Shown: positions 45,719-63,254 of the stretch, in pieces
How the letters are laid out: each line of letters begins with the position of its first letter
Position numbering within the stretch: position 1 is the stretch's first letter
From: an uncultured Nitrososphaerota archaeon
Lineage (GTDB): Archaea > Thermoproteota > Nitrososphaeria > Nitrososphaerales > Gagatemarchaeaceae
Reading direction: 5' to 3'
Assembly (NCBI GenBank): GCA_963718895.1
Contig: CAVRAG010000008.1
Location: 992,001-1,056,000 of the forward strand
DNA length: 64,000 bases
Position numbers and translations under genes: made by a program
Notes under the pieces: model-generated
The model's input: the letters and a program-made list of their open reading frames with translations, nothing else
Databases searched by the model: none
What the model was told of the DNA's origin: nothing

Positions 45719-45761
45719 TTCGGCCCTCTTTAGCCTAATTAACGTTTACCAAGAGTTCCGG

Positions 45762-47804: not shown

Positions 47805-47868
47805 ATTACCATTACTCAGGCCCGGCGGGTCGACATTCTCCTTAAACGTTCCTGAGGGACCGGAGGTC

Positions 47869-48783
47869 TCAGCGGACGTAGGAGAGCCAGGGCTTGTACT
47901 TCTCGATCCTTCCGTGAATGGCGTCCAGATAGATCTTCTGTATCTTCTTGGTCGTCGGGTACTGGCCGTCACCTATCATCCTCCCGTCGACCTCCCGGAT
48001 CGGGGTGACGTTGGCGGCGGTGCCGCTGAAGAAGAGCTCGTCGGCAGTGTACAGCTCGTCCTTGGTGAAGTCCTCCTCGAGTATCTCCATCCCGCTGTCC
48101 CGGGCGATCTGGATGACCGACGCTCTCGTCACCCCGCCCAGTATCCCCGACTGCATCGTGGGCGTGTACACGACGCCGTCCCTCACCCTGAAGATGTTCT
48201 CACCCGACCCCTCAGCCACGTGGCCGTCCAGGGTCAGGAGAATGGCCTCGTCGTACCCTGCGGCCATGGCGTCGGTCTTCGCGAGTATCGAATTGGCGTA
48301 GTTCGCCGAGCACTTTGCCTGGGGCGGAAGAATCCGCGAGTCTATCCTGGCCCAGCTCGAGACTCCGCACCTTATTCCCTTCTCCATGCCCTCCTCTCCT
48401 AGATAGGCCCCCCACTCCCAGCACCCGATCGCCCCGATGACCTTGTTCTTCAGCGGATTGACGCCCATCTCGCCAAAGGAGCTGAAGACGATGGGGCGGA
48501 CGTAGCAGGCCTGGAGCCTGTTCTCCTTCACGAGGTCGAGGCATGCACCGGTGAGCTGCTCCTTCGTGTATGGCAACTTCATCCTGTAGACCTTGGCGCC
48601 GTCGAAGAGCCTGTCGATGTGCTCCCTCAGCCTGAATATCGCCGGACCGTCGGCGGTGTCGTTGCAACGGATGCCCTCGAAGATAGCGTATCCGTAGTGC
48701 AGCGCATGTGTGAGTACGTGTATCTTGGCATCATCCCACGGGACGAACTTCCCGTCGAACCAGATTGCCTTTGTCGGTTGCAA
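47869..48783 (-). CDS. ilvE: Branched-chain amino acid aminotransferase
   Basis: ALHYGYAIFEG, AKCSANY, EGSGEN, GVTR, SGTAA. Confidence 0.95.
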   Translation of the reverse strand: MQPTKAIWFDGKFVPWDDAKIHVLTHALHYGYAIFEGIRCNDTADGPAIFRLREHIDRLFDGAKVYRMKLPYTKEQLTGACLDLVKENRLQACYVRPIVFSSFGEMGVNPLKNKVIGAIGCWEWGAYLGEEGMEKGIRCGVSSWARIDSRILPPQAKCSANYANSILAKTDAMAAGYDEAILLTLDGHVAEGSGENIFRVRDGVVYTPTMQSGILGGVTRASVIQIARDSGMEILEEDFTKDELYTADELFFSGTAANVTPIREVDGRMIGDGQYPTTKKIQKIYLDAIHGRIEKYKPWLSYVR

Positions 48784-48818
48784 CTTGCTAACACCTGGTT
48801 CTCCCGCCCTGAGGCTAT

Positions 48819-49860
48819 TTACGTATCGCTCAAGCCCGACAGGTGTTTGGCGACGGCGGACTCCGACCTCTGAGGTGGAGCTCGCCCCGCCCAGGTCGCT
48901 GGGTCCTGACGCCCGCCCTCGAGCGTGTGGTTGACAGCCGACCTGATGGCAGACGCCGCTTCGGTGCAGCTCGCGTCGCCGCGGGTCTTCGAGAGCCATT
49001 CCAGCATCATGGCACACGTGAGCAGCATCGCGACGGGGTTGGCGAGCCCCTTGCCCGCTATGTCGGGGGCTGCCCCGTGAACGGGCTCGAATATGGCAGA
49101 GCCTTCGCCGATGTTGGCAGAGGGCGCGACCCCGAGCCCCCCGACGAGCTGGGCCGCCTCGTCAGAGAGTATGTCGCCGTACATGTTCGTGGTAACAATG
49201 ACGTCGAAGGTCTCGGGCATCCTGATCAGGTTCATCGCGGCCGAGTCGACGAGCATCTCGCTGAAGGCGATCGACGGATGGCCTCGGCGAGACCTCTCTG
49301 CAGACCTGCGAGAATAGCCCATCGCTCTTCCTGAGCACGTTTGACTTGTGCACGGCGAGGACCTTCCTCGGGCCGTTCCTCTGCTCGGCCAGCTCGAACG
49401 CGTACTTGGCTATCCTCTCCGAGGCCCTCCGCGTTATCGTGCGGAGTGCGACGACCCCTCCCTCGAACTCGAACTCCATCCCGCGGTAGAGGCACTCTGT
49501 GTTCTCCCTTACGATTACGAAGTCGATGTCGGGCCTCAGCGAAGCGACATGGGGCAGGCTCTTGGACGGTCTGATGTTGGCGTAGAGGTTGAGCACCTGT
49601 CTCAGCTTGACGATCGTCTCCGCAGCGGTGTCGCCGACTGGTGCCTTGAGGCACGCGTCCGAGTCCCTTATCGTCGAGAGCGAGCCCTCGGGGAGCGCCT
49701 CCCCGGTCCTTGACTTGCAGCCGTCTCCCGCCGGGGCGGCCCTGAACTCGAACCTCAGGTCGAAGCGGGCCCGGAGAGCCTCGAGGACTTGGAGCGATAC
49801 CGAGGAGATCTCTGGTCCGATTCCGTCACCCTCGATTGTGGCGATCGTATAGGTCGTCAA
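48819..49860 (-). CDS. leuB: 3-isopropylmalate dehydrogenase (frameshifted)
   Basis: [45 protein letters not shown]. Confidence 0.88.
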
Positions 49861-49876
49861 GCGAGAATCACAGGAG

Positions 49877-50405
49877 CTACTGAGCGGGGGCTTTCAGCTT
49901 TTGCCTCAGCCGCTCTCGGACATATCCGAGGAAGCCGCCCCTCTTCATCTGCTCCACCGCGGCGTCTGTCGCTACTATGACGAACTCCGTCCCCTTCGTC
50001 AGGTCCTTGAGGCTCCGTGCGTCGAGGTCGATAAGGAGCTCGTCCCCCAGCTCGATCCTGCTCGTGTCGCTTATCTGGATGGGCAGCAGCCCGTTGTTGA
50101 GCGCGTTCCTGTAGAAGATGTCAGGGAACGATTGTGCCACGACCGCGATGACGTTGTTGTACTTCACCGCGTAGACGGCCTGCTCCCTCGAGCTCCCGCA
50201 TCCGAAGTTGTTCCCCGCAACGACGATGCTCTCCTTGTTGGCCCGGCAGGCGGACTTGAACGAGGGGTCGTAATACTCGAAGGCGTGGTCTGCGAAGAAC
50301 TGCTTGTCCCAGCTCTCCTGGAGCAGATACGCTGGGATGATGTAGTCGGTGTTGATGTCGTCCGGGTACTTCTTGGCGACCTTCCCTCTGAGTCTGCATG
50401 GTCAA
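49877..50405 (-). CDS. leuD: 3-isopropylmalate dehydratase small subunit (frameshift near the start)
   Basis: DDINTDYIIP, NFGCGSSREQA, IFYRNALNNGL. Confidence 0.9.
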
Positions 50406-51721
50406 TCACCCAGGTACTTCCGCGGGTCGGCGATCCTACCCTCGAGGGCGGTCGCCGCTGCGACCGCAGGCGAAGCCGAGATAGATGAAAGCCTCCGGCG
50501 AGCCCATCCTGCCCCTTGTAGTTCCGGTTGCTCGTGCTGAGGCACCGGTCGCCGGGGGCGAGAATACCCATGTGCTTCCCGAAGCAGGGTCCGCAGTTCG
50601 AGGACTCGATGTTAGCGCCGCTCTGGGCGATGGTATTGAGGATGCCGTTGTCCATGGCCCAGTTGTAGACCTTCCTGCTCGCAGGGATGACTATCAGGTT
50701 CGTGTCGGGGTGCACCTTCCTCCCCTTCAGGATCTTGGCGGCCACAGTCAGGTCGCTCCTCCTGGCGTTCGCGCACGAGCCAAGGAAGACGACGTTGATG
50801 GGATCGCTCACCTCGCTGACGGGCTTCGCGTTTGCTGGTGAATGCGGCAGCGAGACGGTCGGTTCGATTGCCGAGGCGTCGACGTTCACGGTCTGTGAGT
50901 AGGACGCGTCCTCGTCGCTCCGCATGACCATCCCCGTCTGCTCTGCGCTGACCGACTGGCCCTTTCCCGAGAGTGCGTTGTTGACGTAACCCATAGTCGT
51001 CTGGTCCGGATTGACTATTGCAGTCCTGGCGCTCATCTCGACCGAGAGGTTGCAGATCGTGAACCGTCCGTCCATCTCCATCGAGGAGATGGTTGGGCCC
51101 TCGTACTCGGCGACCCTCTTGGAGCATCCTCCCTCGCCCATGAGTCCCAGGACGTGAAGCACGAGGTCCTTGGGATAGACGCCGAGCTGCAGGTTCCCGT
51201 CGACGTGGAACCGGACGGTCTCGGGAACCGTGAAAGAGTAGAGCTCCCCCGTAGCCAGCAGGTTCTCGCCCTCCGTCGTCCCTATCCCGAAGGCGAGCGC
51301 ACCGAGGGCGCCCTGGGTGCAGGTGTGCGAGTCCGTCGCCACCGCTATCTCGCCGGGCAGGACAAACCCCTCCTCCGAGGCTATCGTGTGCTCGATCCCG
51401 TCCCCCTCCTTGTACATCGCTATCTGCTGCTGTTTGGCGAAATCAGCCATCAGCTTGATCCCCGAGCTGACCATGATCGAGCACGATGGGACGGTGTGGT
51501 CGGGCATGAACGCGACTCTCAGAAGGGTCGAAGACCTTCATCCTCCTCCCTGCATCCTGATAGACGTCCCCGAAGTCCTTCTGGAAGTTGAGGATGGCTG
51601 GGGGACCGATGACCTCGTTGAAGTACAGCTTGTCGACAGGAAGGGCCTCGATCAGCTCCCCGGCCTTGACAGTCCTCCCCACGGCGCGCGAGACTATCTT
51701 CTCGGTTATTGTGGAGCCCAT
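50402..51721 (-). CDS. leuC: 3-isopropylmalate dehydratase large subunit (two frameshifts)
   Basis: TITEKIV, PDH, DSHTCT, GSCAN, CGPC, STSNRN. Confidence 0.9.
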
Positions 51722-53286
51722 TCACAAACCCTCTATGGGACCCGTGGGCTTCTCCGGCTCGAGAACCCTGATCCTCTCCGTGTCCTGCTTCTTCGCCAGC
51801 AGGGCGTTGGTACCGGCGACGATGGCTTCCACGCTGGCCACGACGATGTCCCTCTTCATGCCTCTTCCGGAAGCGGTGTGTCCGGCGTCGTCCTCGACCT
51901 CCACCGTCACGTCGGCGACCGCGCCCGAGTCTCCGGTCAGGGCCTCCAGCCTGTAGTTCTTCAGCCGGACCGTCTCGATGTTGCTGAATATCTTCTGGAT
52001 GGCGTTCACCGCTGCGTCGACCGCCCCGGACCCCACCTCTGTGGCCTCGTGGAGATGGCCGCGCACCAGCAGCTTGACGGTCGCGGTCGGGAGCCTCTTG
52101 ATGCCCGTCACGACCTCCAGTCCCTCCAGCTCGACGAGCTCGTTCTTCTCGGCGCTGCCGCCCCCCATGATCTGGACGGCTATCTGATAGAGGTCGGAGT
52201 CGGTCACGCTGGATCCTCCGTCGCCCATCTCCTTGACCCTCCCTACGATGAGCCTCAAGCTCTCCTCCTTGGGCTTGAGCCCCATGCCTCGCAGCTGCGC
52301 CGAGATGCCATGGCGGCCCGCGTGCTTCCCTGCCTGCAGCCACCTCGTCCTTCCGACCATCGACGGATCGAACGGCTCGAAGGTCGAGGGGTTGTTCAGG
52401 ACCCCGTCGGTGTGTATCCCTGACTCATGGCCGAACGCGTTGTCCCCGATTATCGCCTTGTTCGGTTGTATCGGCACGCCGGTGAGCCTGTTGACAAGGC
52501 GTGACGTCTCGTAGAGCAACTGGTAGTTGGTGTTGGTGGGGAGCGCGTAGAGGTTGTTGCAGGCCATCACGAACTCCTCCAGCGAGGTGTTGCCAGACCT
52601 CTCCCCTATTCCGTTGATCGTGACGTGCACCTGGTCTGCGCCCGCGACCACTCCGGCAAGGCTGTTCGCAACTGCCAGTCCGTAGTCGTTGTGGCAGTGC
52701 ATGCTGATCATGATGTCAGAGACCGACCTGGCGGCTCTGACGTAGTCCGCCATCAGCTGCGGTGTCGCTATGCCCACCGTGTCCGGGATGTCGAAGCGGT
52801 CCGCGCCGGCCTCAGAGACGGCCTTCACGACCTGCTTGAAGAACCCGATTTCCGTCCTCGTGGCGTCCATGGCCGAGAACTCGACCTTCACCCCGAAGCT
52901 CTTCGCGTACCTCACGGCCTCGGTGGACTGCTCGATCATCCGATCTCTGGTGATGTTCATCTGGTGCTGGAGGTGGATGTCCGAGGAGGAGAGGAAGACG
53001 TGGATTCCGTTTATCCCACACCCGATGGCGGTGTCGATGTCTGCCTTCTCGGCGCGGGCCAGGCCGCACACCTCCGCCCTGAGACCGGCTCTGCGCGATG
53101 GCGCGGATCGCCTCCTGCTCTCCCTTCGAGGTGATCGGGAAGCCTGCCTCTATCACGTCGACGCCCAGCCGATCGAGGGCCTGAGCTATCTCGAGCTTCT
53201 CCTGCGGCGTGAGCGAGACGCCCGGGGTCTGCTCCCCGTCCCTCAGGGTTGTGTCGAAGATCCTGAATCAGACGGCCGGCGGTCAT
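51722..53286 (-). CDS. leuA: 2-isopropylmalate synthase (LeuA/CimA family) with regulatory domain (frameshifts in the 5' part)
   Basis: [41 protein letters not shown]. Confidence 0.88.
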
Positions 53287-53759
53287 GTCTGGACCTCCTT
53301 TGGGAGGGCCGCGACGCCTGTCCTCGCTATGTCGAGGACGCTGGTGTTGAGCCCGGCGACGAAGTCGTCAATCTGTTTGGCGCTCCCGACTATCTCCACC
53401 ACGGCGGACCGGGTCGACGAGTCCACGATGCGGCAGGATTGCATCTTCTGTATGTCGGCTATGGACATCTTGTCGGTGTTGATCCTCACGAGTGCCAGCT
53501 CTCTGGCCGTCACCTCCTCAGGACTGTAGGTGTGGGCTTCGAGGACGTCTATCACTTTCATCAGCTGCCTGGCCACGTGCTCTACGGCGGCGTCGTCTCC
53601 TTCGAGCGTTATGGTGATCCGGACGTCTTCGCCCCCGTTGGTCGCGCCAGCTGTCATCCCGTCGATGTTCAGGCGCATCAGCCTCACCAGGTGGACCACC
53701 CTGAAGAGGGCGCCGGGCTTGTTCTCGACCAGTGCCGAGAGAACCTTCGAGGCCCTCAG
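53283..53759 (-). CDS. ilvN: Acetolactate synthase small regulatory subunit (start approximate)
   Basis: LSALVENKPGAL, QLMKVIDV, RELALV, IARTG. Confidence 0.9.
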   Translation of the reverse strand: MRASKVLSALVENKPGALFRVVHLVRLMRLNIDGMTAGATNGGEDVRITITLEGDDAAVEHVARQLMKVIDVLEAHTYSPEEVTARELALVRINTDKMSIADIQKMQSCRIVDSSTRSAVVEIVGSAKQIDDFVAGLNTSVLDIARTGVAALPKEVQT

Positions 53760-55474
53760 AAGACGGACATCTCCTTGGATGTGCCGTAGACGGTCTCCTT
53801 GATGCTCTTCCCGGGAGGCATGAACGGGAAGACGTCCTCCTCGTGCGAGACGGGGACCTCTATGAGCGTGGGCGAGTCGCTCCTGACGCCCTCCCTCAGC
53901 GCCTTCCCGAACTCGTCGAGCGAGCCGACGCGCGTGCCCTGCACGCCGTAGGATTCGGCCAGCTTCACGAAATCGGGCAGGTTCTGGAATCTGATGCCGA
54001 TGAAGCGTCGGTTGTACATCAGCCTCTGCCACTGCTCGACCATCCCCAAGCTCCTGTCGTTCATCACTATGGCGACCACGGGGATCTTCTCCTCCACTGC
54101 CGTCGCGAGGGCCTGCTCGGTCATCACGAAGCTTCCGTCGCCATCGAAGTCGACCACCGGAACACCGGGCATTGCGAACTTCGCGCCCACTGCGGCCGGG
54201 AGTCCGAAGCCCATCGTCCCCAGGCCCGTAGAGGTCACCCAGGTCCTCGGCCGCATCACGCGGTAGTGGATTTCGCACCACATCTGGTGTCTGCCGACGC
54301 CGGTCGTGAGAATCGCTTCCGGAGGCAGTATGTCTCTCATCAGCTTGACAATCTTGGGTCCCGACAGTTCCGCGTAGGCGTCCTTGTAGGCGGGGATGCC
54401 CTTCATCTCCTCCCGGACCTGGTTGAGGCGCGCAAGCCACGCGTTGTCGTCGGTCTTCCTGGTGATTCGCCTTACCAGCGCGTCGAAGAGCATGGTGAGA
54501 ACTCGGTTCGCGTCACCGAGTATGCTCAGGGTGACGAGCTTGTTCTTGTTGAACTCGGTCGGGTCCGCGTCTATGTGGATGATCTTGGCGTCGGGCGCGA
54601 ACTCGCTGAAGGTCCCCGTCGAGCGGTCGGAGAACCTAACGCCCACGGCAAGAAGAACGTCACACTCTCCGACGAGCTTGTTGGCCTCGGCCCGTCCGTG
54701 CATCCCTATGGGTCCCACGGAGAGGGGATGGTCCTCTGGGAATGTCCCCTTGCCCTGGAGCGTCGTGATGACGGGGGCCACCAGGAGTTCGGCTATGGCC
54801 TTGAACTGAAGGGAGGCGTCCGCTATCCTGATCCCTCCTCCCCCGAAGAGCAGGGGCCTCTGGGCTTTCACCAGCATGTCGGCCGCCCTCTCGATGTCCT
54901 GCGAGTCGACCGCCGCACTGGGCCTGTATCCTCTAATCTCGATCGAGTCCGGGAAGGTAATTTCGGCCTCCTCCTGCTGCACGTCCTTGGGTATGTCGAG
55001 CAGGACGGGTCCTGGCCTCCCGGTCTGGGCGATGTAGAAACTCTTCTTCACGGCGGAGGGTATCTCGGCCGCGGAGAGGGGCTGAAGAGTGTACTTGGTT
55101 ATCGGGGTGAGCACACCGACCACATCCGTCTCCTGGAAGCCGCTCTTCCCCGTCATGCTCTTCGAGACCTGTCCCGTGATTGCGACCACTGGGGAAGAGT
55201 CGGCAAACGCCGTCGCGATCCCGGTGACGAGGTTTGTCGCTCCGGGACCCGAGGTGGCGGAGCAGACCCCGGCCTTCCTCGAGACCCTGCCGTAGGCGTC
55301 CGCCATGTGGGCGCCGATCTGCTCGTGCCTTACGAGCACGTGCTTGATCTTCGAGTCCCACAGCGCGTCATAGAACGGGAGGTTGGCGCCTCCAGGCATC
55401 CCGAAGATGTACTCTACCTTCTCCTTCTCAAGGGCCTCCACGATGGCCCGTGCCCCGGACATTTTTTCAGGCAT
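53756..55474 (-). CDS. ilvB: Acetolactate synthase large subunit
   Basis: FGMPGGA, VRHEQ, TSGPGATN, GLGTMGFGLP, GDGSF..N, LGMVEQWQ. Confidence 0.96.
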   Translation of the reverse strand: MPEKMSGARAIVEALEKEKVEYIFGMPGGANLPFYDALWDSKIKHVLVRHEQIGAHMADAYGRVSRKAGVCSATSGPGATNLVTGIATAFADSSPVVAITGQVSKSMTGKSGFQETDVVGVLTPITKYTLQPLSAAEIPSAVKKSFYIAQTGRPGPVLLDIPKDVQQEEAEITFPDSIEIRGYRPSAAVDSQDIERAADMLVKAQRPLLFGGGGIRIADASLQFKAIAELLVAPVITTLQGKGTFPEDHPLSVGPIGMHGRAEANKLVGECDVLLAVGVRFSDRSTGTFSEFAPDAKIIHIDADPTEFNKNKLVTLSILGDANRVLTMLFDALVRRITRKTDDNAWLARLNQVREEMKGIPAYKDAYAELSGPKIVKLMRDILPPEAILTTGVGRHQMWCEIHYRVMRPRTWVTSTGLGTMGFGLPAAVGAKFAMPGVPVVDFDGDGSFVMTEQALATAVEEKIPVVAIVMNDRSLGMVEQWQRLMYNRRFIGIRFQNLPDFVKLAESYGVQGTRVGSLDEFGKALREGVRSDSPTLIEVPVSHEEDVFPFMPPGKSIKETVYGTSKEMSVF

Positions 55475-55494
55475 TGTAACTATCACTTGTTTTT

Positions 55495-55536
55495 AGAAAT
55501 CCCTCGCTTGAACCCTAGAGCGAGAGACTCTAGAGT
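55495..55536 (-). promoter_or_regulatory. Alternative overlapping RNA hairpins, candidate attenuator
   Basis: CTCTCGCT/AGCGAGGG (55526-55501) competes with ACTCTAGAG/CTCTAGGGT (55536-55512), which covers the leader stop codon. Confidence 0.55.
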
Positions 55537-55595
55537 AAGACAATCAACGCTACTTGAGCAAGAACCGACTGTGTCGTAGCGTTGCCGCGTTGCAT
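55530..55595 (-). CDS. Putative ilv-leu operon leader peptide (21 aa), absent from the ORF track
   Basis: MQRGNATTQSVLAQVALIVLL*; 8 of the last 11 codons are Val/Leu/Ile; TATA about 26 nt upstream of the ATG. Confidence 0.7.
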   Translation of the reverse strand: MQRGNATTQSVLAQVALIVLL

Positions 55596-55616
55596 TGCCA
55601 GAAGGTAGGCGGGAGA

Positions 55617-55625
55617 TATATTTAA
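55617..55625 (-). promoter_or_regulatory. TATA box for the leader/ilvB transcript
   Basis: TTAAATATA on the minus strand, centred about 26 nt upstream of the leader ATG. Confidence 0.6.
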
Positions 55626-55694
55626 GAATTAACAGATTCAAATCAAGAACAGCAGCAGAATCAGGTCCGCGATGGGATTCCTTTGCCGCGTAGA

Positions 55695-55704
55695 TTTAAA
55701 TATA
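55695..55704 (+). promoter_or_regulatory. TATA box for the regulator-lipA transcript
   Basis: TTTAAATATA, about 24 nt upstream of the ATG at 55723. Confidence 0.55.
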
Positions 55705-55722
55705 ACGGCTTTATAGTCTATC

Positions 55723-56154
55723 ATGAAGAAAATGATCAATCCCTACGAGATGATATCCAAGAGCGCCCTGCCTGCCTTCAGGGCCATGATCGCCAAGAGG
55801 CTCACGGAGAACTACGACCTGACACAGCAAGAGGTCGCGACAAGGCTGGGATTGACACAGGCCTCCATAAGCAACTACGCGAGGAAGGCCCGCGGCATGA
55901 TGCTGAACCTTGAGATCGACCCCAACCTGGCGAAGGCCGCCGACCAGGTCGCGGAGGTCCTCTCCTCGGAGACTCCCAACCAGAGGGAGGCGCTCCGCAT
56001 GATGACCGAGGTCTGCGACTACATCAGATTCAACCACGTGATGTGCCGGCTCCATGAAGACCTGGACCCTGCCTTCAGGACGGAGGGGTGCTACGCCTGC
56101 GCGGGAGGTCTCCCGCTCGATAGCAGCCAGATAAAGGGAAAGCTCGTCGCCTAG
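55723..56154 (+). CDS. XRE-like HTH regulator (COG2522-like) with C-terminal Cys/His motif
   Basis: LPAFRAMIAKRL, LTQQEVATRLGLTQASISNY..RG, C..CRLH..CYAC. Confidence 0.82.
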   Translation: MKKMINPYEMISKSALPAFRAMIAKRLTENYDLTQQEVATRLGLTQASISNYARKARGMMLNLEIDPNLAKAADQVAEVLSSETPNQREALRMMTEVCDYIRFNHVMCRLHEDLDPAFRTEGCYACAGGLPLDSSQIKGKLVA

Positions 56155-56166
56155 GGCAAGAACGAT

Positions 56167-57057
56167 TTGGAAAGAAAGCCGGAGTGGCTGACGGTCCTCC
56201 CCTCTGGAGGTGAAAACCACCAGAGGCTGAAGACGCTCTTTGAAAACCTGAATCTTCACACCGTCTGTCAGGAAGCCCACTGCCCGAACGTGGCCGAGTG
56301 CTGGGGAGGCGGCACTGCCACCCTGATGCTCATGGGGGACATGTGCTCCCGGGCGTGCAGGTTCTGCATGGTCACCCCTGGCAGGCCCACGGCTCCGCTG
56401 GACGAGCTCGAACCAGACAACGTGGCCTTCGCCCTCTCCCAGATGGACCTGAACTATGTCGTCCTGACGTCCGTGGACAGAGACGACGTGCCCGACGGGG
56501 GCGCTTCGCACTTCGCAAGAACGATTGAGAAAATCAGGGAGAGCAGCCCCGGGATGATGGTCGAGGTACTCATCCCGGATTTCCAGAACGACGTTGACGC
56601 GATACGGACGGTGGTCGAATCCCGTCCGGACGTGATCGCCCACAACATCGAGACGACCCTCTTCCTGAGCGACCGGGTGAGAGACCCCCGGGCCAACTAC
56701 TGGCAGTCGCTCTCGGTCTTGAGGACCGTGAAGAAGCTGGACCCGAGGATGTTCACGAAGTCTTCGATCATGGTCGGGCTCGGAGAGCAGGAGGAGGAGA
56801 TGAGGCTCGCAATGGCGCACCTGCGCGGAGCGGGAGTAGACTTCCTCACCATCGGGCAGTACCTCAGGCCGTCGAAGAGGCACCTTCCCGTGAGGGAGTA
56901 CGTCAATCCGGAGGCCTTCGAGGCGTACAAAAGGATGGGAGAGGAGATGGGGTTCAGATACGTGGCCTCGGGCCCGCTGGTCAGGACCAGCTACAGGGCC
57001 GGGGAGTTCTTCGTTCGCTCCATAGTGACCAGAGCCAAGGCAATCAACGAAGTCTGA
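56167..57057 (+). CDS. lipA: Lipoyl synthase
   Basis: CQEAHCPNVAEC, CSRACRFC, GQYLRP, VRTSY. Confidence 0.96.
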   Translation: MERKPEWLTVLPSGGENHQRLKTLFENLNLHTVCQEAHCPNVAECWGGGTATLMLMGDMCSRACRFCMVTPGRPTAPLDELEPDNVAFALSQMDLNYVVLTSVDRDDVPDGGASHFARTIEKIRESSPGMMVEVLIPDFQNDVDAIRTVVESRPDVIAHNIETTLFLSDRVRDPRANYWQSLSVLRTVKKLDPRMFTKSSIMVGLGEQEEEMRLAMAHLRGAGVDFLTIGQYLRPSKRHLPVREYVNPEAFEAYKRMGEEMGFRYVASGPLVRTSYRAGEFFVRSIVTRAKAINEV

Positions 57058-57118
57058 AGCAAAGATAGCATAGTCTTATCAGCGAGAAACGCGCCTGACG
57101 GTCAGTAGGTTTCCGCCC

Positions 57119-58187
57119 ATGGAGATGCTGCAAATCGTCAGAGCGGACGGCGAATTCGACTCCAAGTCGGAGCCCAACCTTCGTGCCGAGGACCTGCAGA
57201 AGATGTACCGGCAGATGCTCACAATCAGGCGGTTCAATGAGAGGATGCTCCTTCTCCAGAGGCAGGGGAGGATCGGTTTCTTCATCGAGTCCACCGGGCA
57301 GGAGGCATGCCAGATTGGGAGCGCGTTCCCCCTCACCCAGGGCGACTGGGTCTACGGGGGTTACAGGGACCCAGGCATCTGTCTCGTGAGGGGCGTGCCC
57401 CTCAAGGCGCTGGTCGACCAGCTCATGTCGAACGCGGACGACCCGAACAAGGGCAGGCAGATGGGGGTCCACTGGGGCTACAAGGAGTGGAACATCGTGA
57501 GCCTGTCCAGTCCCGTTGCCTGCCGCCTCTCGCAGGCGGTCGGGACGGCCTACGCGGCCAAGATAAAGAAGGACAACATCGTCTGCCTCACGAGCTTCGG
57601 CGACGGCGCGACGTCCCAGGGCGAGTTCCACTCGGCGATGAACTTCGCCGGTGTCTTCAAGGTCCCGGTCATATTCTTCTGCGAGAACAACCAGTACGCC
57701 ATATCCCTCCCCGTGAGGAGGCAGACGGCGAGCGAGAACATCGCGGTCAAGGCGGACGCCTACGGCTTCGAGGGAGTGCTCGTCGACGGCAACGACGTGC
57801 TCGCGGTCTACAAGGCGACGAGGGCGGCGGTCGACAAGGCCAGGTCTGGCGGCGGCGCGACCCTGATCGAGGCGGTCACCTACAGGATCGGAGGCCACTC
57901 CTCATCGGACGACCCCACCAAGTACAGGACCTCCGAGGAGCTGGAGCTCTGGAGGTCCAGGGACCCGATCAAGCGGTTCAGGATCTACCTGATGAAGAAG
58001 GGCCTGCTGACGTCTCAGGAGGACAGGAAGGTGCAGGACGAGGTCGACTCGGAGCTGGTCTCAGATCATCAAGGCGAGCGAGAAGGTCCCGCACCCGGCG
58101 CGCCTCTCGATGTTCACGGACGTCTACGCGGAGATGCCGTGGCATCTCAAGGAGGAGGCCGACGAGCTCGAGCAGGAGGGGAGATAG
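57119..58187 (+). CDS. 2-oxoacid dehydrogenase E1 alpha, probably branched-chain type (frameshift near 58060)
   Basis: QRQGRIGF, GQEA, KGRQM, GDGATSQGEFH..NN, HSSSDDP. Confidence 0.9.
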
Positions 58188-59163
58188 ACGGCCCTGCAGA
58201 CCATAGTGCAGGCGGTCAACCAGACGCTGCGCGATGAGATGAGACGGAACGGGAACATGGTCATCTTGGGAGAGGACGTCGGGAGGGACGGAGGCGTCTT
58301 CAGGGCGACCGAGGGGCTCTTCGACGAGTTCGGCGGGGAGAGGGTGCTCGACACGCCTCTGGCGGAGGACGCGATAGTGGGGATGGCCATAGGCATGGCG
58401 CTCTACGGGCTCCAGCCGGTCGCTGAGATCCAGTTCATGGACTTCATCTACCCCGCCTTCAACGAGATAGTCAGCGAGCTTGCGAAGATGAGGTACAGGT
58501 CCGGTGGGCAGTTCCAGGCGCACGTGGTCATCCGCACGCCCTACGGCGGGGGTGTCAAGGGCGGTCACTATCACTCACAGAGCACCGAGGCTTACTTCAT
58601 CCACACTCCAGGGCTCGTTGTCCTCGCGCCGTCGACGCCCTACGACACCAAGGGTCTGCTCTTGTCCGCGATGAGGTCGCCGGACCCCGTGATCTTCCTC
58701 GAGCCGAAGCGAATCTACAGGACGGTCAAGGAGGAGGTCCCCACCGAGGAGTACCTCGTCCCCATCGGCAAGGCCAAGGTGGTCCAGGAGGGGACCGACG
58801 TGACCCTCGTGAGCTGGGGCGCCATGGTTCAGACGTGCAGGGAGGCCGTGGCCCTCGGGTGCCAAGGAGAACCTGAGCGTGGAGCTGATCGACCTGCGGT
58901 CGCTGCTCCCCTTCGACATCGAGACGGTCGTGCAGTCGGTCAGGAAGACGGGCAGGCTGGTCATAGCGCACGAAGCCACGAAGATTGCGGGTTTCGGGGC
59001 GGAGATATCGGCACAGGTAAGCGAGAGGGCCATCGACTCGCTGAGAGCGCCGATCCTGAGGCTCGCAGGGTTCGATACGCCATTCCCGTACGCCCTTGAG
59101 AACGTCTACCTGCCTTCACCAGAAAGGATACTTAGAGCCGTCAGGAAGGCCTCTAGCTACTGA
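58188..59163 (+). CDS. 2-oxoacid dehydrogenase E1 beta (frameshift near 58857; start reads ACG)
   Basis: GEDVG..GGVFRAT, DTPLAE, EIQFMDF, HYHSQS, IDLRSL, DTPFP. Confidence 0.92.
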
Positions 59164-59170
59164 GACTTCA

Positions 59171-60367
59171 TTGGTTCAATACGAGCTCAAGTTACCTGAC
59201 ATAGGTGAGGGTGTTGCTGAAGGAGAGATTCTCAAGTGGCTCGTCAAGGAGGGCGAGGAGGTGAAGGAGGACCAGTCGCTCGTCGAGGTCATGACGGACA
59301 AGGTGAACGTCCAGATCCCTTCTCCCAAGGACGGGACTGTGGCGAAGCTTCTAGTCAAGGAGGGGGAGGTCGTCAAGGTCGGGCTAGGCATACTCCTGAT
59401 CGAGGTCGCCGAGTCGGGTCAGGCTACCCCCGATGAGGCCGGACCCGCGCCCGCGTCCGTCCCTACCCCGCAGGTCCTCCAGTCTCCAGCATCCCCCGAC
59501 CGCGTCCTTGCGACGCCGGCGACCCGGAAGCTTGCGCGAGAGCTCGGGGTCGACATCACACAGGTCACGGGCACGGGTCCTAGCGGCCGTGTGACCGAGG
59601 ACGACCTGAGGGGCAAGGGTTCATCGGCCCCGGTGATGAAGGAGACGGTTCCCGTGCCTCCCGGTGGAGACGAGCGTGTGCAACTCAGGGGAGTCAGGAA
59701 GCTCATGGCGGAAAGGATGGCGAAGTCGTTCCACACGATGGCCCAGGTCACGCTGGTCGACGAGGTCGACATGACCGAGCTGGTCCTTCTCAGGGAGGCG
59801 TTCAAGGGCAGCGCCCAGAAGAAGGGAGTGAAGCTCACGTTCCTGCCGCTCGTCATCAAGGCTGTGCTCCCCGCCCTGAAGGAGTTCCCCTTCGTCAACT
59901 CGATGATGGACGAGAGGAGCGGGGAGATAGTCCTGAAGAAGCGGTACAACATCGGAATCGCTGTCGACACCCCGAACGGGCTCATGGTCCCGGTCGTCAA
60001 GGACGCAGACAGGAAGGACATCTTCGAGCTCTCGGCGGAGATGGAGAGGCTTGCGGCGAGGGCGCGGACCGGAGAACTGGGGCTGGAGGAGGTCCAGGGC
60101 TCGACGTTCACGATCACCAACCTGGGATCGATCGGGGGGCTCTTCGGGACCCCGATTGTCAACTACCCGGAGGTCGCCATACTGGGGACGCACCGCATCT
60201 CGAAGAGGCCCGTCGTGAAGGAGGGGGAGATTGAGATCAGGGACATGATGTACCTTTCCATGAGCTTCGACCACAGGGTGATGGACGGCGCCTACGGCGC
60301 GAGGTTCATGAACCGGGTCATCGACATCATACAGGACCCGAAGAAGATACTCTCAGAGATACTCTGA
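59171..60367 (+). CDS. Dihydrolipoamide acyltransferase E2
   Basis: LPDIGEG, MTDKV lipoyl Lys, ATPATRKLA, FDHRVMDG. Confidence 0.95.
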   Translation: MVQYELKLPDIGEGVAEGEILKWLVKEGEEVKEDQSLVEVMTDKVNVQIPSPKDGTVAKLLVKEGEVVKVGLGILLIEVAESGQATPDEAGPAPASVPTPQVLQSPASPDRVLATPATRKLARELGVDITQVTGTGPSGRVTEDDLRGKGSSAPVMKETVPVPPGGDERVQLRGVRKLMAERMAKSFHTMAQVTLVDEVDMTELVLLREAFKGSAQKKGVKLTFLPLVIKAVLPALKEFPFVNSMMDERSGEIVLKKRYNIGIAVDTPNGLMVPVVKDADRKDIFELSAEMERLAARARTGELGLEEVQGSTFTITNLGSIGGLFGTPIVNYPEVAILGTHRISKRPVVKEGEIEIRDMMYLSMSFDHRVMDGAYGARFMNRVIDIIQDPKKILSEIL

Positions 60368-60369
60368 GC

Positions 60370-60597
60370 TCAGGCCTGGACCAGGGTCTCTGTGCTTCTG
60401 ACGCCGCGCGCCGAGTTGATCTGGCCCGTCAGCTTCCTGATCTCGGGATAGCCAGACGCCTCGATGAACGCGACCATGTCGTACCTCCCGTAGGCGATGA
60501 AAGCCTTCCTGACGCCCTTGAGGGACTTGGTCTTCTGAAGGACCGAGTCCGTCTCCAGCGGCACCGTCTTGATCAGGATGCAGGCGTTGAGGGTCAA
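60370..60597 (-). CDS. Stand-alone Lrp/AsnC ligand-binding domain protein
   Basis: ACILIK..YGRYDMVA..GVRSTETL. Confidence 0.82.
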   Translation of the reverse strand: MTLNACILIKTVPLETDSVLQKTKSLKGVRKAFIAYGRYDMVAFIEASGYPEIRKLTGQINSARGVRSTETLVQA

Positions 60598-60598
60598 C

Positions 60599-60832
60599 CT
60601 AGGACACCTCTACCTCGGGCAGCGTCTCTGTGAAGACAACCCCGGAGAGCCTGTTCACCTTCAGGATGGCGTGGGCGAGGGCCTTCGTATTGGTTGCCTC
60701 GAAATCGGCGACAATATCATAGCGGCCGAGCACCGAGAAGGCGCTCCTGACCTGGGGAATCTGCTTCAGATTGTCGGCGACTTCGTCGAACTTTCCCCGC
60801 TCTGCCCTTATCAGAACACATGCGGAAATCAA
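60599..60832 (-). CDS. Stand-alone Lrp/AsnC ligand-binding domain protein
   Basis: ACVLIR..LGRYDIVA..GVVFTETL. Confidence 0.82.
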   Translation of the reverse strand: MISACVLIRAERGKFDEVADNLKQIPQVRSAFSVLGRYDIVADFEATNTKALAHAILKVNRLSGVVFTETLPEVEVS

Positions 60833-60985
60833 TCCAACCGAGGATTGTCCCGGAGCCTAGCTAATAAACGGTTCCCGGGCAGATCTCCGGAATCCCTGAA
60901 GCGTGCCAGGAATAGGTTCAAATTCGTCATCCCTGCATCATGGCCAGATCACATGATGCCAGCTTCAGTTAGTGTACATGGGAGG

Positions 60986-62044
60986 ATGGAGAGTCATGGA
61001 GACGAGTGGAAGAGCCCGCTCAGCGTCTCTCCCGAAGGACCTGTCGTGGCCTATGCCCTTTCGCATGAAACGTATACCGTGCCGCAGCTTCTCGAGTACG
61101 GGGCAGCGGCGGAGCGAGCGGGGTTCAGGATGGCATGGACCAGCGACCACTTCCAGCCCTGGCAGGACAACCAGGGTCACTCCGGTCTGGCCTGGGTTAC
61201 CCTGGCGGCTCTCAGCCAGCGCACGTCCCATCTGGCCTTCGGCACAGGTGTGACCTGCCCGACGTTCCGCTATCTCCCGGCGATAGTCGCGGAAGCCTGG
61301 GCGTCGCTCAGCCATCTGGCCCCGGGCCGCGTCTTCCTAGGACTGGGGACCGGGGAGAACCTGAACGAGGGGGCTTCGGGCGGTGGATGGGGCAAGTACC
61401 AGGAGCGCTCCGAGCGGCTTATCGAAGCCATCAGAATCATCCGGGAGCTTTGGACCGGGGAGCGCGTGAAGATCCATGGGAAGTACTGGGACGTCGATGC
61501 CAAGCTCTATGACAAGCCGGCATCGCCCATCCCAATCTACATCGCCGCGGGTGGCCCGAAGAGCGCGCGGATCGCGGGGCTCCACGGAGACGGCCTGATC
61601 GCAGAGGGAGGGCCGCTCGGTTCCAACCCGCTCTACAAGGCAGCTTGGCAGGAAGGGGCGCGCGAGTCGGGGAAGGACCCTTCCACCCTCCCGATCATCG
61701 TCGAGCTCTACGCGGTCGTGGGAGGGGAGAGAGAGGCGAGGCAGAGTGCCGACCTCTGGCACTTCACTCCGCAGGCCTGGAAGCACGGATATTTTGACGA
61801 GGTCGACCCCCTCCGAATACAGCAGAAGGCCGAGCGCGAGATCCCGTTGGAGGTCGTCTACAGGGACTGGCCCGTAGGCACGGATCCCGAGGTCCACCTC
61901 AAGGCGATCAGGGATACGGCCGCGAGGGGCGCGACCCACGTGGTGATCACGACCGCGACCCCGAACCAGCTGGAGGTGATCGACTTCTACGGAACCAAGG
62001 TACTCCCCTATGTTAGGGGCGGGACCCGAACTATGGGTCGATGA
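60986..62044 (+). CDS. F420-dependent LLM-class oxidoreductase (G6PDH-like); start uncertain
   Basis: LSHE, SDHFQPW, GTGVTCP, GLGTGENLNE, AAGGP. Confidence 0.88.
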   Translation: MESHGDEWKSPLSVSPEGPVVAYALSHETYTVPQLLEYGAAAERAGFRMAWTSDHFQPWQDNQGHSGLAWVTLAALSQRTSHLAFGTGVTCPTFRYLPAIVAEAWASLSHLAPGRVFLGLGTGENLNEGASGGGWGKYQERSERLIEAIRIIRELWTGERVKIHGKYWDVDAKLYDKPASPIPIYIAAGGPKSARIAGLHGDGLIAEGGPLGSNPLYKAAWQEGARESGKDPSTLPIIVELYAVVGGEREARQSADLWHFTPQAWKHGYFDEVDPLRIQQKAEREIPLEVVYRDWPVGTDPEVHLKAIRDTAARGATHVVITTATPNQLEVIDFYGTKVLPYVRGGTRTMGR

Positions 62045-62700
62045 GGCCGCCCCGGTGCCTGAACGTGCTCCCGAATAGTAGAGGCCGGTGGCCGCATCGG
62101 TGGGTTTGGCCGTGTACTCGAACTTGGAGGTACACCATACGCGCCGTAGATCGTCCCGTACGGCTTGTAGTCGGAGCTGAACAGGGTCGAATCAGAGGAG
62201 CTGGTGATTTTGCAAACTTCGTTGATCGCTTAAGGCATTGGGGGGCACACGCCGTTCGAAAGAGCCTAATTAGTGCTCAGATTGGTTTGAATAGCCCAAT
62301 TACGGCTTGTATGCAATAGCCCGGCCAGGATTCGCTACTAGGATGGGGTTGGAACCACCAACGGGATTACGAGCACATTGACTTCTGGTACTGAAATCAA
62401 GCCGGCTCCGAAGTACTGATGGATGACTCCAAAAGTGGTGGATCCTACTTCTCCTGGTCCATCCCTTTTGGCAGACTTGACTGTCGTCCTCGAGGTCTGA
62501 CAAGAAGAAAGTGGAAAAAAAGAAACACTACAACGTAGGCCGCCATCCCCACCACATCTGCAATCAGCTCGGCTACTCCGGCCCAATGAGGCCTCGGTGA
62601 CTGCTCCCCCCAAGAGAAGGGCGATGATCATGACAACGATGGTCTTCACGTGCGTCGAGGATGAAGTCGCTACCCGTCCTTGTCCTAGATATGGGAATGC

Positions 62701-63232
62701 TTAGTATGGGCTCTTCAGAATCGCCAAGACTTGTTCCAGTTCGCGGGGCTCTCGAAAGCCAAGGTCCAATGCCGAATGATTCTTGAACTGAATCGCTACG
62801 CTGGCAATGGTCTTCTTCTCCGTCACCAGAAGGCCTCCGCGGAAAGGTGAAAGCGAAATCATCAGCGGGACATTTGGCCTCGGATCTACATGGGTCACAA
62901 TCAAGTCCTCGGACCTCTTGCTCCCGGCACTAGCGAATGAGACTAGGAGGAAACCCCCTTCATCTCTGAAGTCCTTGTAGCTGACAACGAGAGGCCGAAC
63001 CCTAAAGGTCGCTAGCCGCACTGAGGCTATGGCAAGTATCGAGATGACAAACGCCAACACGGAGACATAGAAGACCGTGAATGCCTCACCCTCTGGGCTG
63101 AGGGCCAAGAAAGGAGCAGATGCGAACGCAACCAAGACCGAGACACAGAGGGCAACAGTCGGGGTCAGTAACTTGACATTCCGGAATCCTATCCTTTCTG
63201 TCCCAAGAGCTTCGAACGAACCCGACTTCATG
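62701..63232 (-). CDS. Hypothetical membrane protein (two TM plus soluble domain)
   Basis: MKSGSF start 22 nt after the upstream stop; two hydrophobic helices; lower GC. Confidence 0.5.
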
Positions 63233-63254
63233 ACAAGACCAGAGCTCGCTCTTC

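Follow-up and report, generated by a model that had tools for sequence, protein, structure and literature searches.

Directly upstream of ilvB, on the minus strand, lies a leader ORF of 21 codons that closes with a run of codons for valine, leucine, and isoleucine, and a GC hairpin begins at the last base of its stop codon. This leader is probably a ribosome-based sensor of charged Leu-, Val-, and Ile-tRNA, and a ribosome stalled on it would keep the adjoining hairpin open. On balance, it also appears plausible that the Nitrososphaerales, including the ammonia-oxidizing Nitrosopumilaceae, control the synthesis of branched-chain amino acids (BCAA) by ribosome-mediated attenuation, employing a leaderless leader peptide and no antiterminator.

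The leader ORF and its promoter

The window (the whole stretch of 64,000 nucleotides that was analyzed) contains the following features, given with their coordinates, their strand, and the evidence used to define them.

55723..56154 (+): divergent helix-turn-helix (HTH) protein gene, 143 aa (weak HTH matches)
55619..55626 (-): TATA box CTTAAATA of the leader/ilvB promoter (sequence; regex in relatives)
55530..55595 (-): leader ORF, 21 codons plus TAG, MQRGNATTQSVLAQVALIVLL (sequence reading; homologues in the genus)
55576..55584 (-): S1, CAACGCTAC, 5′ arm of a stem within the ORF (RNAalifold)
55545..55553 (-): S2, GTAGCGTTG, codons Val15-Ala16-Leu17, 3′ arm of the same stem (RNAalifold)
55533..55565 (-): codons 11-21, the proposed sensing codons, 8 of 11 for Val/Leu/Ile (codon usage; 44 leader tails)
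55497..55530 (-): hairpin starting from the last base of the stop codon (folding, shuffles, covariation)
55482..55486 (-): Shine-Dalgarno-like GTGAT, 7 nt before the ilvB ATG (sequence)
53756..55474 (-): ilvB, acetolactate synthase large subunit, 572 aa (TIGR00118, 691.6 bits, cut-off 538)
53283..53801 (-): ilvN, acetolactate synthase small subunit, start approximate (TIGR00119, 111.8 bits, cut-off 56.9)
47869..53283 (-): rest of the operon, with leuA, leuC, a leuD-like piece, a leuB-type dehydrogenase, and ilvE (family matches)

Position and codon make-up of the leader, the hairpin, and the conservation of both are direct observations. Inspection of the minus strand placed the start ATG of the leader at 55595-55593, its stop codon TAG at 55532-55530, and the ilvB ATG at 55474-55472, which leaves a gap of 55 nt (55529-55475). 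The leader coordinates (55595-55530) agree with an earlier, sequence-only reading of this DNA, in which a 21-aa minus-strand ORF ending 55 nt before the ilvB ATG had been noticed, and translation confirmed the eight Val/Leu/Ile codons that it had counted among the terminal 11. The bacterial ilvB retrieved share 42-48% identity with that of the window; the motif GGTGA(T) recurs before ilvB in relatives, and the ilvB-proximal GTGAT presumably matches the 3′ end of 16S rRNA. Further down the operon, the N- and C-terminal parts of leuA, leuC, and leuB are in different frames in the assembly. The matches of the divergent HTH gene are weak (HTH_ParB, 24.9 bits; HTH_3, 22.4 bits), no NCBIfam match was found for its product, and 20 nt separate the end of its own TTTAAATA (55695-55702) from the ATG.

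The TATA box CTTAAATA, which is embedded in a wider A/T block, TTAAATATAT (55625-55616, minus strand), had been assigned to the leader ATG rather than to that of ilvB, and this assignment stood, as the 8-mer ends 23 nt upstream of the leader ATG. A regex search of 18 close relatives placed the end of the TATA 8-mer 22-25 nt upstream of the leader ATG in 17 of them; in the remaining one, CTTATAAA followed by a 23-nt spacer was read by eye. TTAAATA is invariant in alignment A1, and the sequence of the spacer between TATA box and ATG differs between relatives. As 22-25 nt fits the usual archaeal distance between TATA box and transcription start, the spacing is compatible with a leaderless start at the leader ATG. 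Three public runs were found (shares 0.05-0.20), in which only short, low-depth contigs of relatives were present.

When the 200 nt upstream were shuffled with dinucleotides preserved, only 2 of 300 shuffles contained an ORF with at least seven I/L/V among its 10 terminal codons. Among the 35 TATA-preceded small ATG ORFs of the genome, the leader ranks first, with 7/10 against 5 for the next best. In a scan of 5,998 small ATG ORFs outside crude genes, in which a spurious ORF on the opposite strand masked the leader, 14 reached a BCAA tail of 7/10, and only one of these 14 had a hairpin region of -14 kcal/mol or lower; genome-wide, no convincing second copy of a BCAA-tailed small ORF with hairpin was found. 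The BCAA-rich leader ORF is, hence, more than chance.

That its BCAA codons are uncommon in this GC3-rich genome, as had been remarked from the sequence, was borne out by codon counts over 1,143 long ORFs. The genome GC3 is 0.77, and the synonymous shares of the codons in question are.086 (GTT),.116 (CTT),.087 (GTA),.059 (TTG),.119 (ATT), and.009 (TTA); these six codon types, each below 12% of its synonymous set, make up six of the eight BCAA codons of the window leader. TTA, which accounts for 0.9% of the Leu codons in the genome, is used among the proposed sensing codons of the leader, and of 18 close relatives, 17 have it within the five final sense codons.

The same signature was quantified in 44 leaders, a selection of ours comprising loci with a candidate ORF, many of which are related, so that the pooled figures overstate independence. 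In their final 10 codons, 303 of 440 residues (69%) were L, V, or I, compared with only four Phe and five Met (about 1% each). T occupied codon position 2 in 312 of 440 codons, position 1 in 74, and position 3 in 119. The other two frames of these tails encode 15% and 21% L/V/I, and 17% of the codons in the +1 frame are stops. The coding signature of the 44 leader tails is, thus, specific to BCAA.

Conservation within the genus and spread beyond it

The comparison of ilvB upstream regions from related genomes, by which the sequence-only reading had proposed to check its claim, revealed a conserved BCAA-rich short ORF at the same place. Within the genus (Gagatemarchaeum-like Nitrososphaerales), the homologous leader is intact in 19 of 20 assessable genomes, that is, genomes with at least 150 nt present upstream of ilvB. 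The exception (G022) carries a 1-nt frame break in the leader, and the ilvB of that assembly is itself spread over several frames. Leader lengths in the genus are 66, 69, 81, and 84 nt, all differences being multiples of three, and the changes observed are synonymous or exchange one BCAA for another; one leader (L014) has BCAA at only three of its 10 terminal positions. Searched with a covariance model of the element, 15 of the 23 genomes of the genus yielded a single copy each; all of these copies lie immediately before ilvB, and there were no matches at other positions.

The ilvB genes of further families in the order, Nitrosopumilaceae among them, are preceded by ORFs that are not homologous to the leader yet share its design, with a nearly leaderless start, a run of Leu/Val/Ile at the C-terminus, and a GC hairpin that begins between -9 and +11 nt relative to the stop codon. 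At least six I/L/V among the 10 terminal residues, together with an ATG start, were found at 8 of 13 loci from other families and at 12 of 14 loci from the family we take to be Nitrosopumilaceae, and at least seven were reached at 11 of 14 named Nitrosopumilaceae loci, including those of Ca. Nitrosotalea devanaterra and Nitrosarchaeum sp. LAS73; the three sets may overlap. Nitrosocosmicus-type ORFs lack the hairpin. In other orders of the phylum, none of 52 ilvB loci (24 families) reached 6/10, with a maximum of five; the same was true for all seven loci of Methanosarcinales and other methanogens (maximum, five) and for all 38 loci of other archaea and bacteria (maximum, four).

A small hydrophobic peptide acting in trans would account for the hydrophobic C-terminus of the leader peptides. 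This notion is highly improbable, because the hydrophobic run of about 8-10 residues, in peptides of 14-31 residues (up to 42 in longer readings), is too short for a membrane helix, because the N-terminal parts differ between families and are not conserved, and because the position of the ORF is fixed to that of ilvB.

Within the genome, no amino acid-specific leader was found upstream of any of the four genes ilvC, ilvD, hisG, and trpE. A strict scan for TATA boxes followed by small ORFs likewise turned up no leader for another amino acid, and the 392 matches of a looser version were mostly due to chance. The absence of leaders from ilvC and ilvD could be taken to mean that the ilvB leader is a constitutively translated upstream ORF, serving 5′ ribosome loading, basal expression, or RNA stability, which would be insensitive to BCAA and the hydrophobic tail of which would be tolerated or otherwise used. 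The duplex tests described below, which revealed no alternative structures, would agree with this, as would the attenuator-like ilvB leader of Streptomyces coelicolor, in which replacement of the candidate regulatory codons is reported to have left regulation unchanged (PMC1262725). Such a role seems unlikely, since it leaves unexplained why Leu, Val, and Ile are chosen and Phe and Met avoided among the NUN codons, why the rarest Leu codon is retained, and why the ORF is tied to ilvB and absent elsewhere in the genus and from the genome scan.

RNA structure at the leader stop and within the ORF

The hairpin of the window comprises a 5′ arm (55530-55519), a loop (55518-55509), and a 3′ arm (55508-55497). 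Its core has 12 pairs and a folding energy of -14.9 kcal/mol; the hairpin region has a z-score of -2.93, only 1 of 200 shuffles being as stable. Three basal pairs covary in clade A. Measured from the end of the stop codon, the 5′ base of the hairpin was at -9 to +11 nt in the 44 leaders (median, -1), and 0-39 nt separate the end of the hairpin from the start of ilvB. These hairpins have a median energy of -12.2 kcal/mol, with 35 of 44 at -8 or lower; compared with shuffles, the mean z is -1.85, 21 of 44 being below -2 and 43 of 44 negative. In an alignment of 18 sequences, the hairpin regions of the two clades were out of register, and no consensus structure emerged; an alignment of eight sequences did give one. 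The whole 138-nt leader RNA (-34.8 kcal/mol) is not unusually stable, as its z is -1.21 and 25 of 200 shuffles were equally stable.

No U-run follows the hairpin in the window; the sequence after it is CUAAAAAC, and the sole U-rich stretch, AUUUCU, spans the end of the 3′ arm. Runs of at least three U follow the hairpin in 14 of 44 leaders and runs of at least four in 4 of 44, and in Nitrosotenuis- and Nitrosotalea-type leaders U4-U6 lies directly 3′ of it. A combined terminator-pattern and sigma-70 scan of positions 44000-63900 returned 12 terminator-like sites compared with 11.2 expected. The leader hairpin was not among these matches, owing to its 10-nt loop and a tail that is not T-rich. 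Archaeal RNA polymerase terminates at oligo-U and is not known to need a hairpin for this. At the 3′ ends of genes in this genome, the mean hairpin z is -0.16, and T5 runs occur at 2.3% of 1,008 ends; as these ends lack both hairpins and T5 runs, a hairpin acting as terminator would be without local precedent.

Alternative pairings were assessed by duplex tests against shuffles over the 44 loci, which could miss short helices. Neither an antiterminator pairing of the 3′ arm with downstream sequence (mean z, +0.10), nor pairing of the ORF with the 5′ arm (+0.05), nor pairing of the 5′ part of the ORF with the 3′ arm (-0.12) was detected. With all three tests null, a classical antiterminator with 1:2, 2:3, 3:4 logic was not supported, and the element is not a classical four-segment attenuator. 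The sequence-only reading had likened it to the architecture of ilvL, ivbL, and leuL. The BCAA leader, the hairpin at the stop codon, and a stem within the ORF are parts of that likeness which held; an antiterminator, a mutually exclusive structure, and, in the window, a U-run are parts which did not.

In the window, the last leader codons can pair with the GTGAT and start region of ilvB at -10.8 kcal/mol, a value reached by 6 of 200 shuffles, and likewise in the two nearest relatives (L002 and L005). Together with the proximity of the hairpin end to the edge of the ilvB ribosome-binding site, this would suit translational attenuation, in which a ribosome stalled on the BCAA-sensing leader unmasks an ilvB ribosome-binding site hidden by structure, a mechanism documented for mycobacterial leaderless short ORFs (bioRxiv 10.1101/834739). 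The pairing is not conserved (mean z, +0.12 over 44 loci; 6 below -1, 7 above +1). In addition, the unpaired probability of the ilvB site was 0.46 in the free RNA and 0.46 or 0.47 with a simulated stalled ribosome, which raised the openness of the site by more than 0.15 at 2 of 44 loci and lowered it as much at 4 of 44. Both the pairing and the stalled-ribosome folding led us to reject masking of the ilvB site by the leader tail as a general feature, and translational attenuation is considered improbable here.

Within the ORF, RNAalifold predicted a stem of 7-8 consensus pairs between S1 and S2 that is invariant and shows no covariation; TAGCGTTG is invariant in all eight clade A sequences. 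In the second clade, the partner of S2 is ATGCAAC(GC) at the 5′ end, the spacing being 52 nt instead of 23 nt. Such features could also reflect a structured 5′ leader RNA or a DNA operator bound by a protein, for example that of the divergent HTH gene 128 bp upstream, the reading frame being incidental. The S1/S2 stem is an inverted repeat, TAGCGTTG, GCGAG, and ATGCA are invariant at the nucleotide level including third codon positions, and the ORF bodies are somewhat structured (mean z, -0.99), as might be expected of a protein-binding RNA or an operator. The differing repeat spacing between clades, however, is compatible with an RNA stem rather than with a dimer operator. Beyond the genus, no sequence relationship is seen, but the ORF, its BCAA tail, and the position of the hairpin are kept. 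The frame persists through indels, and there is a three-base periodicity with T at position 2. No Rfam 15 family matched either: for positions 55300-55900 of the window, a search with E up to 10 returned two matches, both at chance level, and seven related loci gave none at gathering scores. We, therefore, regard an incidental reading frame as quite unlikely; a protein regulator could act in addition to the leader.

Proposed mechanism and its relation to known attenuators

Taken together, the translation-sensing control element proposed in the sequence-only reading is supported as a candidate. The following account of where transcription starts, of leader translation and ribosome stalling, and of the direction and level of control is inferred. 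Judged by the spacing of the TATA box, transcription would start at, or within a few bases of, the leader ATG, and the ribosome would load on the 5′ end of the transcript without a Shine-Dalgarno site. When BCAA are plentiful, the ribosome would pass the terminal Leu/Val/Ile codons, terminate, and depart, and once it is gone, the GC hairpin at the stop codon could fold and serve as the OFF element. Under BCAA shortage, the ribosome would stall on the last, partly rare codons, and its footprint over the 5′ arm would prevent folding of the hairpin, by which ilvB and the downstream genes would be upregulated. Such direct occlusion would not need an antiterminator. Because a ribosome at the stop codon also covers the hairpin arm, the sensor model would have to depend on dwell time only. 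Least certain is what the hairpin does once it has formed. As a first guess, it would cause transcription to terminate prematurely or to pause, which fits best in Nitrosotenuis- and Nitrosotalea-type leaders because of the U4-U6 after their hairpin; blocked ilvB translation or RNA processing would be alternative outputs.

The enterobacterial leaders ivbL (of ilvBN), ilvL (of ilvGMEDA), leuL, and trpL each form four segments with mutually exclusive 1:2, 2:3, and 3:4 pairing, possess a Rho-independent terminator, and have a leader peptide led by a Shine-Dalgarno sequence. The archaeal element shares with them the enrichment of end-product codons, the use of rare sensor codons, and the position ahead of a biosynthetic operon, as well as, in the mechanism proposed here, a logic that links translation to the fate of the transcript. 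It differs from them in having two independent hairpins and, probably, in being leaderless. In pyrBI of E. coli, a ribosome on the 5′ arm of the terminator hairpin blocks its folding, for which no antiterminator is needed; UTP is sensed via polymerase pausing, and the leader ORF runs through the terminator. Occlusion of a hairpin arm by the ribosome is what we propose here as well, but the present ORF ends where the hairpin begins, and the proposed signal is a stalled ribosome. Other examples of translational attenuation, in which a ribosome-binding site is unmasked, are ermC and cat. Mycobacterial leaderless poly-Cys short ORFs, in which a stalled ribosome unmasks a downstream ribosome-binding site (bioRxiv 10.1101/834739), resemble the present, putatively leaderless and sensory ORF in forming the first cistron of an amino acid operon and in carrying a run of cognate codons; they differ in the unmasking, which folding did not support here as a general feature.

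A closer bacterial parallel than ilvL, ivbL, and leuL is, by analogy, the leaderless actinobacterial ilvB leader. In Actinobacteria, the short ORFs of ilvB contain Ile/Val/Leu runs that overlap terminator hairpins (PMC1262725), and the ilvBNC leader of Corynebacterium glutamicum is leaderless, its terminator having been established by mutation (PMC11857589). In the same accounts, the ilvB/ilvBNC leaders of Actinobacteria (C. glutamicum, Mycobacterium, and Streptomyces) resemble the archaeal element in three respects: a short ORF without its own ribosome-binding site at the (in the archaeal case, predicted) 5′ end of the transcript, an Ile/Val/Leu codon run that abuts or overlaps a GC hairpin upstream of ilvB, and a further hairpin near the 5′ end that can involve the start region (PMC1262725; PMC11857589). 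The actinobacterial elements described there differ in having a poly-U terminator and, in C. glutamicum, also an antiterminator overlapping the terminator, both demonstrated by mutation. In the archaeal element, by contrast, no antiterminator was detected and no U-run is present in the window, and polymerase and promoter are archaeal. The likeness is drawn from published descriptions and does not imply a sequence relationship.

Leader-peptide attenuation is the textbook case of coupled transcription and translation and has, to our knowledge, so far been characterized only in bacteria. No case of archaeal leader-peptide attenuation was found in the literature searched, in line with the sequence-only reading, which knew of no archaeal BCAA attenuator; two archaeal small-proteome papers name leader peptides, in the portions available, only as a bacterial analogy. 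If the proposed mechanism holds true, this would be the first ribosome-mediated attenuation system in Archaea, one in which the stalled ribosome alone decides whether a hairpin forms. The hairpin would then have to act, in a manner not described so far, on the eukaryote-like RNA polymerase of Archaea or on some other downstream step, and this would pose the question of how an RNA hairpin can influence such a polymerase. A conserved, amino acid-specific ilvB leader would provide a concrete and testable archaeal example of ribosomal control in cis, and it occurs in cultured ammonia oxidizers such as Ca. Nitrosotalea devanaterra and Nitrosarchaeum. In practice, a candidate regulatory ORF that has escaped annotation is herewith flagged in ecologically important soil and marine archaea.

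Leader ORF and its genomic setting

On the minus strand, a short ORF with a tail of branched-chain amino acid (BCAA; Leu, Val, Ile) codons, the leader, precedes ilvB, its stop codon lying 55 nt from the ilvB start. The elements concerned are, by window position:

55626–55619, minus: TATA box CTTAAATA, seen in the sequence; 23 nt follow before the leader ATG
55595 (ATG) to 55532–55530 (TAG), minus: leader ORF MQRGNATTQSVLAQVALIVLL, seen in the sequence
55584–55576 with 55553–55545, minus: stem inside the ORF, CAACGCTAC pairing with GTAGCGTTG
55530–55497, minus: GC-rich hairpin starting at the stop codon, 12 pairs, −14.9 kcal/mol (z-score of the region −2.93)
55474 (ATG), minus: ilvB (TIGR00118, 691.6 bits)
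55723–56154, plus: helix-turn-helix gene, divergent from the leader and ilvB

By family matches, ilvB is followed by ilvN, leuA, leuC, a leuB-type dehydrogenase gene, and ilvE; a leuD-like piece is present as well. Judged by ilvB, the closest named relative is the MAG Candidatus Gagatemarchaeum stordalenia (96% identity), the remaining matches being labeled Nitrososphaerales or Thaumarchaeota. Like the helix-turn-helix gene, lipA is divergent from the operon. As the helix-turn-helix gene is preceded by a TTTAAATA of its own, which stops 20 nt short of the ATG (55695–55725, plus), two leaderless-type promoters stand back to back, with ∼70 bp between them. The CCGTTATATTTAAG motif was found again upstream of the leader in relatives.

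A 615-codon plus-strand ORF (53732–55579), longer than ilvB, overlaps ilvB and the leader in antisense and is a typical artifact of a GC3-rich genome. A 736-codon minus-strand ORF (45762–47972) matches dihydrolipoyl dehydrogenase (residues 60–515) and LipB, lipoyl(octanoyl) transferase (517–724), and represents a fusion or, alternatively, two genes merged by an assembly indel. The leuA, leuC, and leuB-type genes each switch reading frame part-way (48950–53320, minus), and ilvD, elsewhere in the genome and outside the window (G000:C8:1073791–1075402), is likewise split across frames. This looks like an indel-rich assembly, not decay of the whole pathway, and may lie behind the completeness estimate of 80.5%.

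The BCAA-rich leader ORF proposed in the sequence-only reading was borne out by comparison with chance. Val, Leu, and Ile make up eight of its 11 final codons, their share of the proteome being 22.7%. When the 200 nt upstream of ilvB were dinucleotide-shuffled, an ATG ORF of 8–60 codons ending at most 120 nt from ilvB and with at least seven Ile, Leu, or Val among its last ten codons arose in 2 of 300 cases. The leader ranks first (7/10; runner-up 5) among the genome's 35 small ATG ORFs that are preceded at leaderless distance by a TATA-like motif. A scan of 5,998 small ATG ORFs lying outside crudely predicted genes, from which the leader was absent because a spurious antisense ORF among those genes masked it, gave 14 with the same score; one of these 14 has a post-stop region at or below −14 kcal/mol, and it lacks a TATA. 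That several of the BCAA codons are uncommon also held: six of eight each account for <12% of their synonymous set (genome GC3 0.77), to which the AT-richer intergenic setting could contribute.

Conservation of the leader and its coding signature

Within the genus (23 genomes, the window's own included), ilvB with at least 150 nt of upstream sequence was available from 20; one further contig stops 56 nt upstream of ilvB, and searching with the window's ilvB found no orthologue in two. The homologous leader ORF is intact in 19 of the 20, so that the BCAA-rich short ORFs with synonymous variation for which the sequence-only reading had suggested searching are indeed present. In the exception, G022, the leader carries a one-base frame break, and ilvB is also split over several frames. 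The leaders form two clades (21–22 vs 26–27 codons), every length difference being a multiple of three, and substitutions at the terminal positions are synonymous or exchange one BCAA for another (GTC/GTT/ATT/CTC/CTT; CTC/GTC/GTG). TTA, which represents 0.9% of Leu codons, occurs among the five sense codons nearest the stop in 17 of 18 sequences. In these 18, the distance from TATA 8-mer to leader ATG is kept while the spacer sequence varies (22–25 nt in 17 by regular expression; the 18th, L040, was identified by eye). A covariance model trained on ten sequences of one clade (clade A) detected a single copy in 15 of the 23 genomes, always directly upstream of ilvB and never elsewhere; the genomes it missed belong to the more distant clade or lack an assembled 5′ end of ilvB.

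Outside the genus, leader sequences are no longer alignable; the design recurs. Among 13 loci from other families of the order, eight carry an ATG ORF that scores 6/10 or better for terminal Ile/Leu/Val and is followed by a hairpin (tails ...SLILVIILLL, ...PLVLVVV, ...EVLLVILI, and ...LLLLVVLLD); of the rest, three score 5/10, L022 has a TTG-start candidate (by eye), and one has a different 25-codon ORF. The design was found in 12 of 14 further loci of a family (f12) that we take to be Nitrosopumilaceae. Named Nitrosopumilaceae records, whose species may overlap with the preceding sets, reach at least 7/10 in 11 of 14, among them Ca. Nitrosotalea devanaterra (MTKVDSTSISSILLQVELVL) and Nitrosarchaeum sp. 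LAS73. Leaders of at least 6/10 were absent from 52 ilvB loci of 24 other families, belonging to other orders of the phylum (maximum 5), from 38 of other archaea and bacteria (maximum 4), and from seven of Methanosarcinales and other methanogens.

Full leaders with hairpins were also seen in MAGs labeled Marsarchaeota G1 (L046, MSRTTSIAQNIILIVLGLLVVLV; ilvB 68% identical to the window's) and Bathyarchaeota (L059, ending LKLIALLIVVLVLLV; 54%), which could reflect gene transfer of the entire unit, or else faulty binning or labeling. Nitrosocosmicus-labeled and similar very AT-rich loci (L027, L052, L053, L055–L057, L062, L063, L072, and L075) have a conserved 24–25-codon ORF ending 28–35 nt before ilvB. 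It often terminates in LLL or LL (e.g., MNSSETINCTLTCDKISVVKPKLLL), no hairpin follows its stop, and it is weak against shuffles; possibly it is a diverged version of the leader restricted to Leu.

The coding signature was assessed on 44 leaders, chosen for having a candidate ORF and many of them mutually related (L022, L023, L026, L027, Nitrosocosmicus-type loci, and near-duplicates were dropped). Their last ten codons encode Leu, Val, or Ile at 303 of 440 positions, Phe at 4, and Met at 5; the base T falls at codon position 2 in 312 cases, at position 1 in 74, and at position 3 in 119. The alternative frames contain 15% and 21% Leu/Val/Ile, with 17% stops in the +1 frame. A tract that was simply rich in T, or a motif acting purely as RNA, would explain neither the avoidance of Phe and Met codons nor the three-base periodicity.

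RNA structures at and around the leader stop

Across the 44 leaders, the 5′ base of the hairpin falls between −9 and +11 nt relative to the stop codon's end (median −1). Its energy has a median of −12.2 kcal/mol (at or below −8 in 35), and the z-score against shuffles averages −1.85 (below −2 in 21, negative in 43). Within clade A, covariation is seen at three basal pairs. Leaders of the Nitrosotenuis and Nitrosotalea types form the 5′ arm from the final codon together with the stop (GCUGUAA), and their 3′ arm is followed by U4–U6 and a Shine–Dalgarno site. Within the ORF body (mean z −0.99), the first BCAA codons often supply the 3′ arm of the second stem. In the genus's second clade, this stem takes in the start codon and its spacing is 52 nt versus 23 nt, which argues for a stem in RNA and against a DNA operator.

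The likeness to bacterial ilvL, ivbL, and leuL attenuators drawn in the sequence-only reading is partial: a BCAA leader and a hairpin are present, and the classical four-segment attenuator is not matched. Over the 44 loci, no alternative pairing was detected between the hairpin 3′ arm and downstream sequence (mean z +0.10), the ORF and the 5′ arm (+0.05), or the 5′ part of the ORF and the 3′ arm (−0.12). A U-run of at least four follows the hairpin in only four leaders, and neither hairpins nor T-runs were found at gene ends of the window's genome. The window's leader tail can pair with the ilvB ribosome-binding site (−10.8 kcal/mol; equaled by 6/200 shuffles), which is unconserved (mean z +0.12), and a simulated stalled ribosome left the computed accessibility of that site unaltered (0.46, 0.46, and 0.47). 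Comparable leaders are absent upstream of ilvC, ilvD, hisG, and trpE in the window's genome. Together, these results speak against four-segment attenuation. Rfam contains no family matching the element.

Two observations concern the genome outside the window. hisG (G000:C8:1093250–1093620) is preceded by a CTTAAATATAA box ∼220 nt away, has no in-frame ATG, GTG, or TTG after the preceding stop, and no His-rich ORF intervenes. A 9-codon ORF, MGTTTATTT (six of eight residues Thr; G000:C8:575832–575861, minus), terminates 50 nt upstream of a functionally uncharacterized 139-codon ORF.

Proposed mode of action and known parallels

A ribosome's footprint extends ∼12–15 nt downstream of the A/P site. 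Because the BCAA codons reach the stop and the hairpin starts there, a ribosome halted on the final two or three sense codons would, assuming this footprint, cover the 5′ arm; direct occlusion is therefore the model we favor, with pyrBI as a parallel for the principle. BCAA shortage would stall the ribosome and hold the hairpin open; with BCAA in plenty, fast termination and release would let it fold and act as an OFF element. Its output could be premature termination or pausing, blocked ilvB initiation, or RNA processing, among which nothing in the window decides. For some Nitrosopumilaceae, the U-tracts favor premature termination.

Among known systems, the actinobacterial leaderless ilvB leaders come closest; there, Ile/Val/Leu runs overlap terminator hairpins (PMC1262725). 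The Corynebacterium glutamicum terminator has been demonstrated by mutation (PMC11857589). A warning by analogy comes from Streptomyces coelicolor, where codon changes in a similar-looking ilvB leader revealed no attenuator behavior (PMC1262725). A literature search for archaeal or thaumarchaeotal leader peptides, attenuation, or uORFs returned only bacterial work, and two archaeal Ribo-seq papers bring up leader peptides by analogy alone.

The comparative evidence supports the leader well as a translation-sensing element, a role we consider fairly probable, and one that becomes somewhat more probable once the variant with translational output is counted in. Judged from sequence comparison, these archaea probably use the idea of the bacterial leader-peptide sensor in a simplified, two-hairpin, leaderless form.
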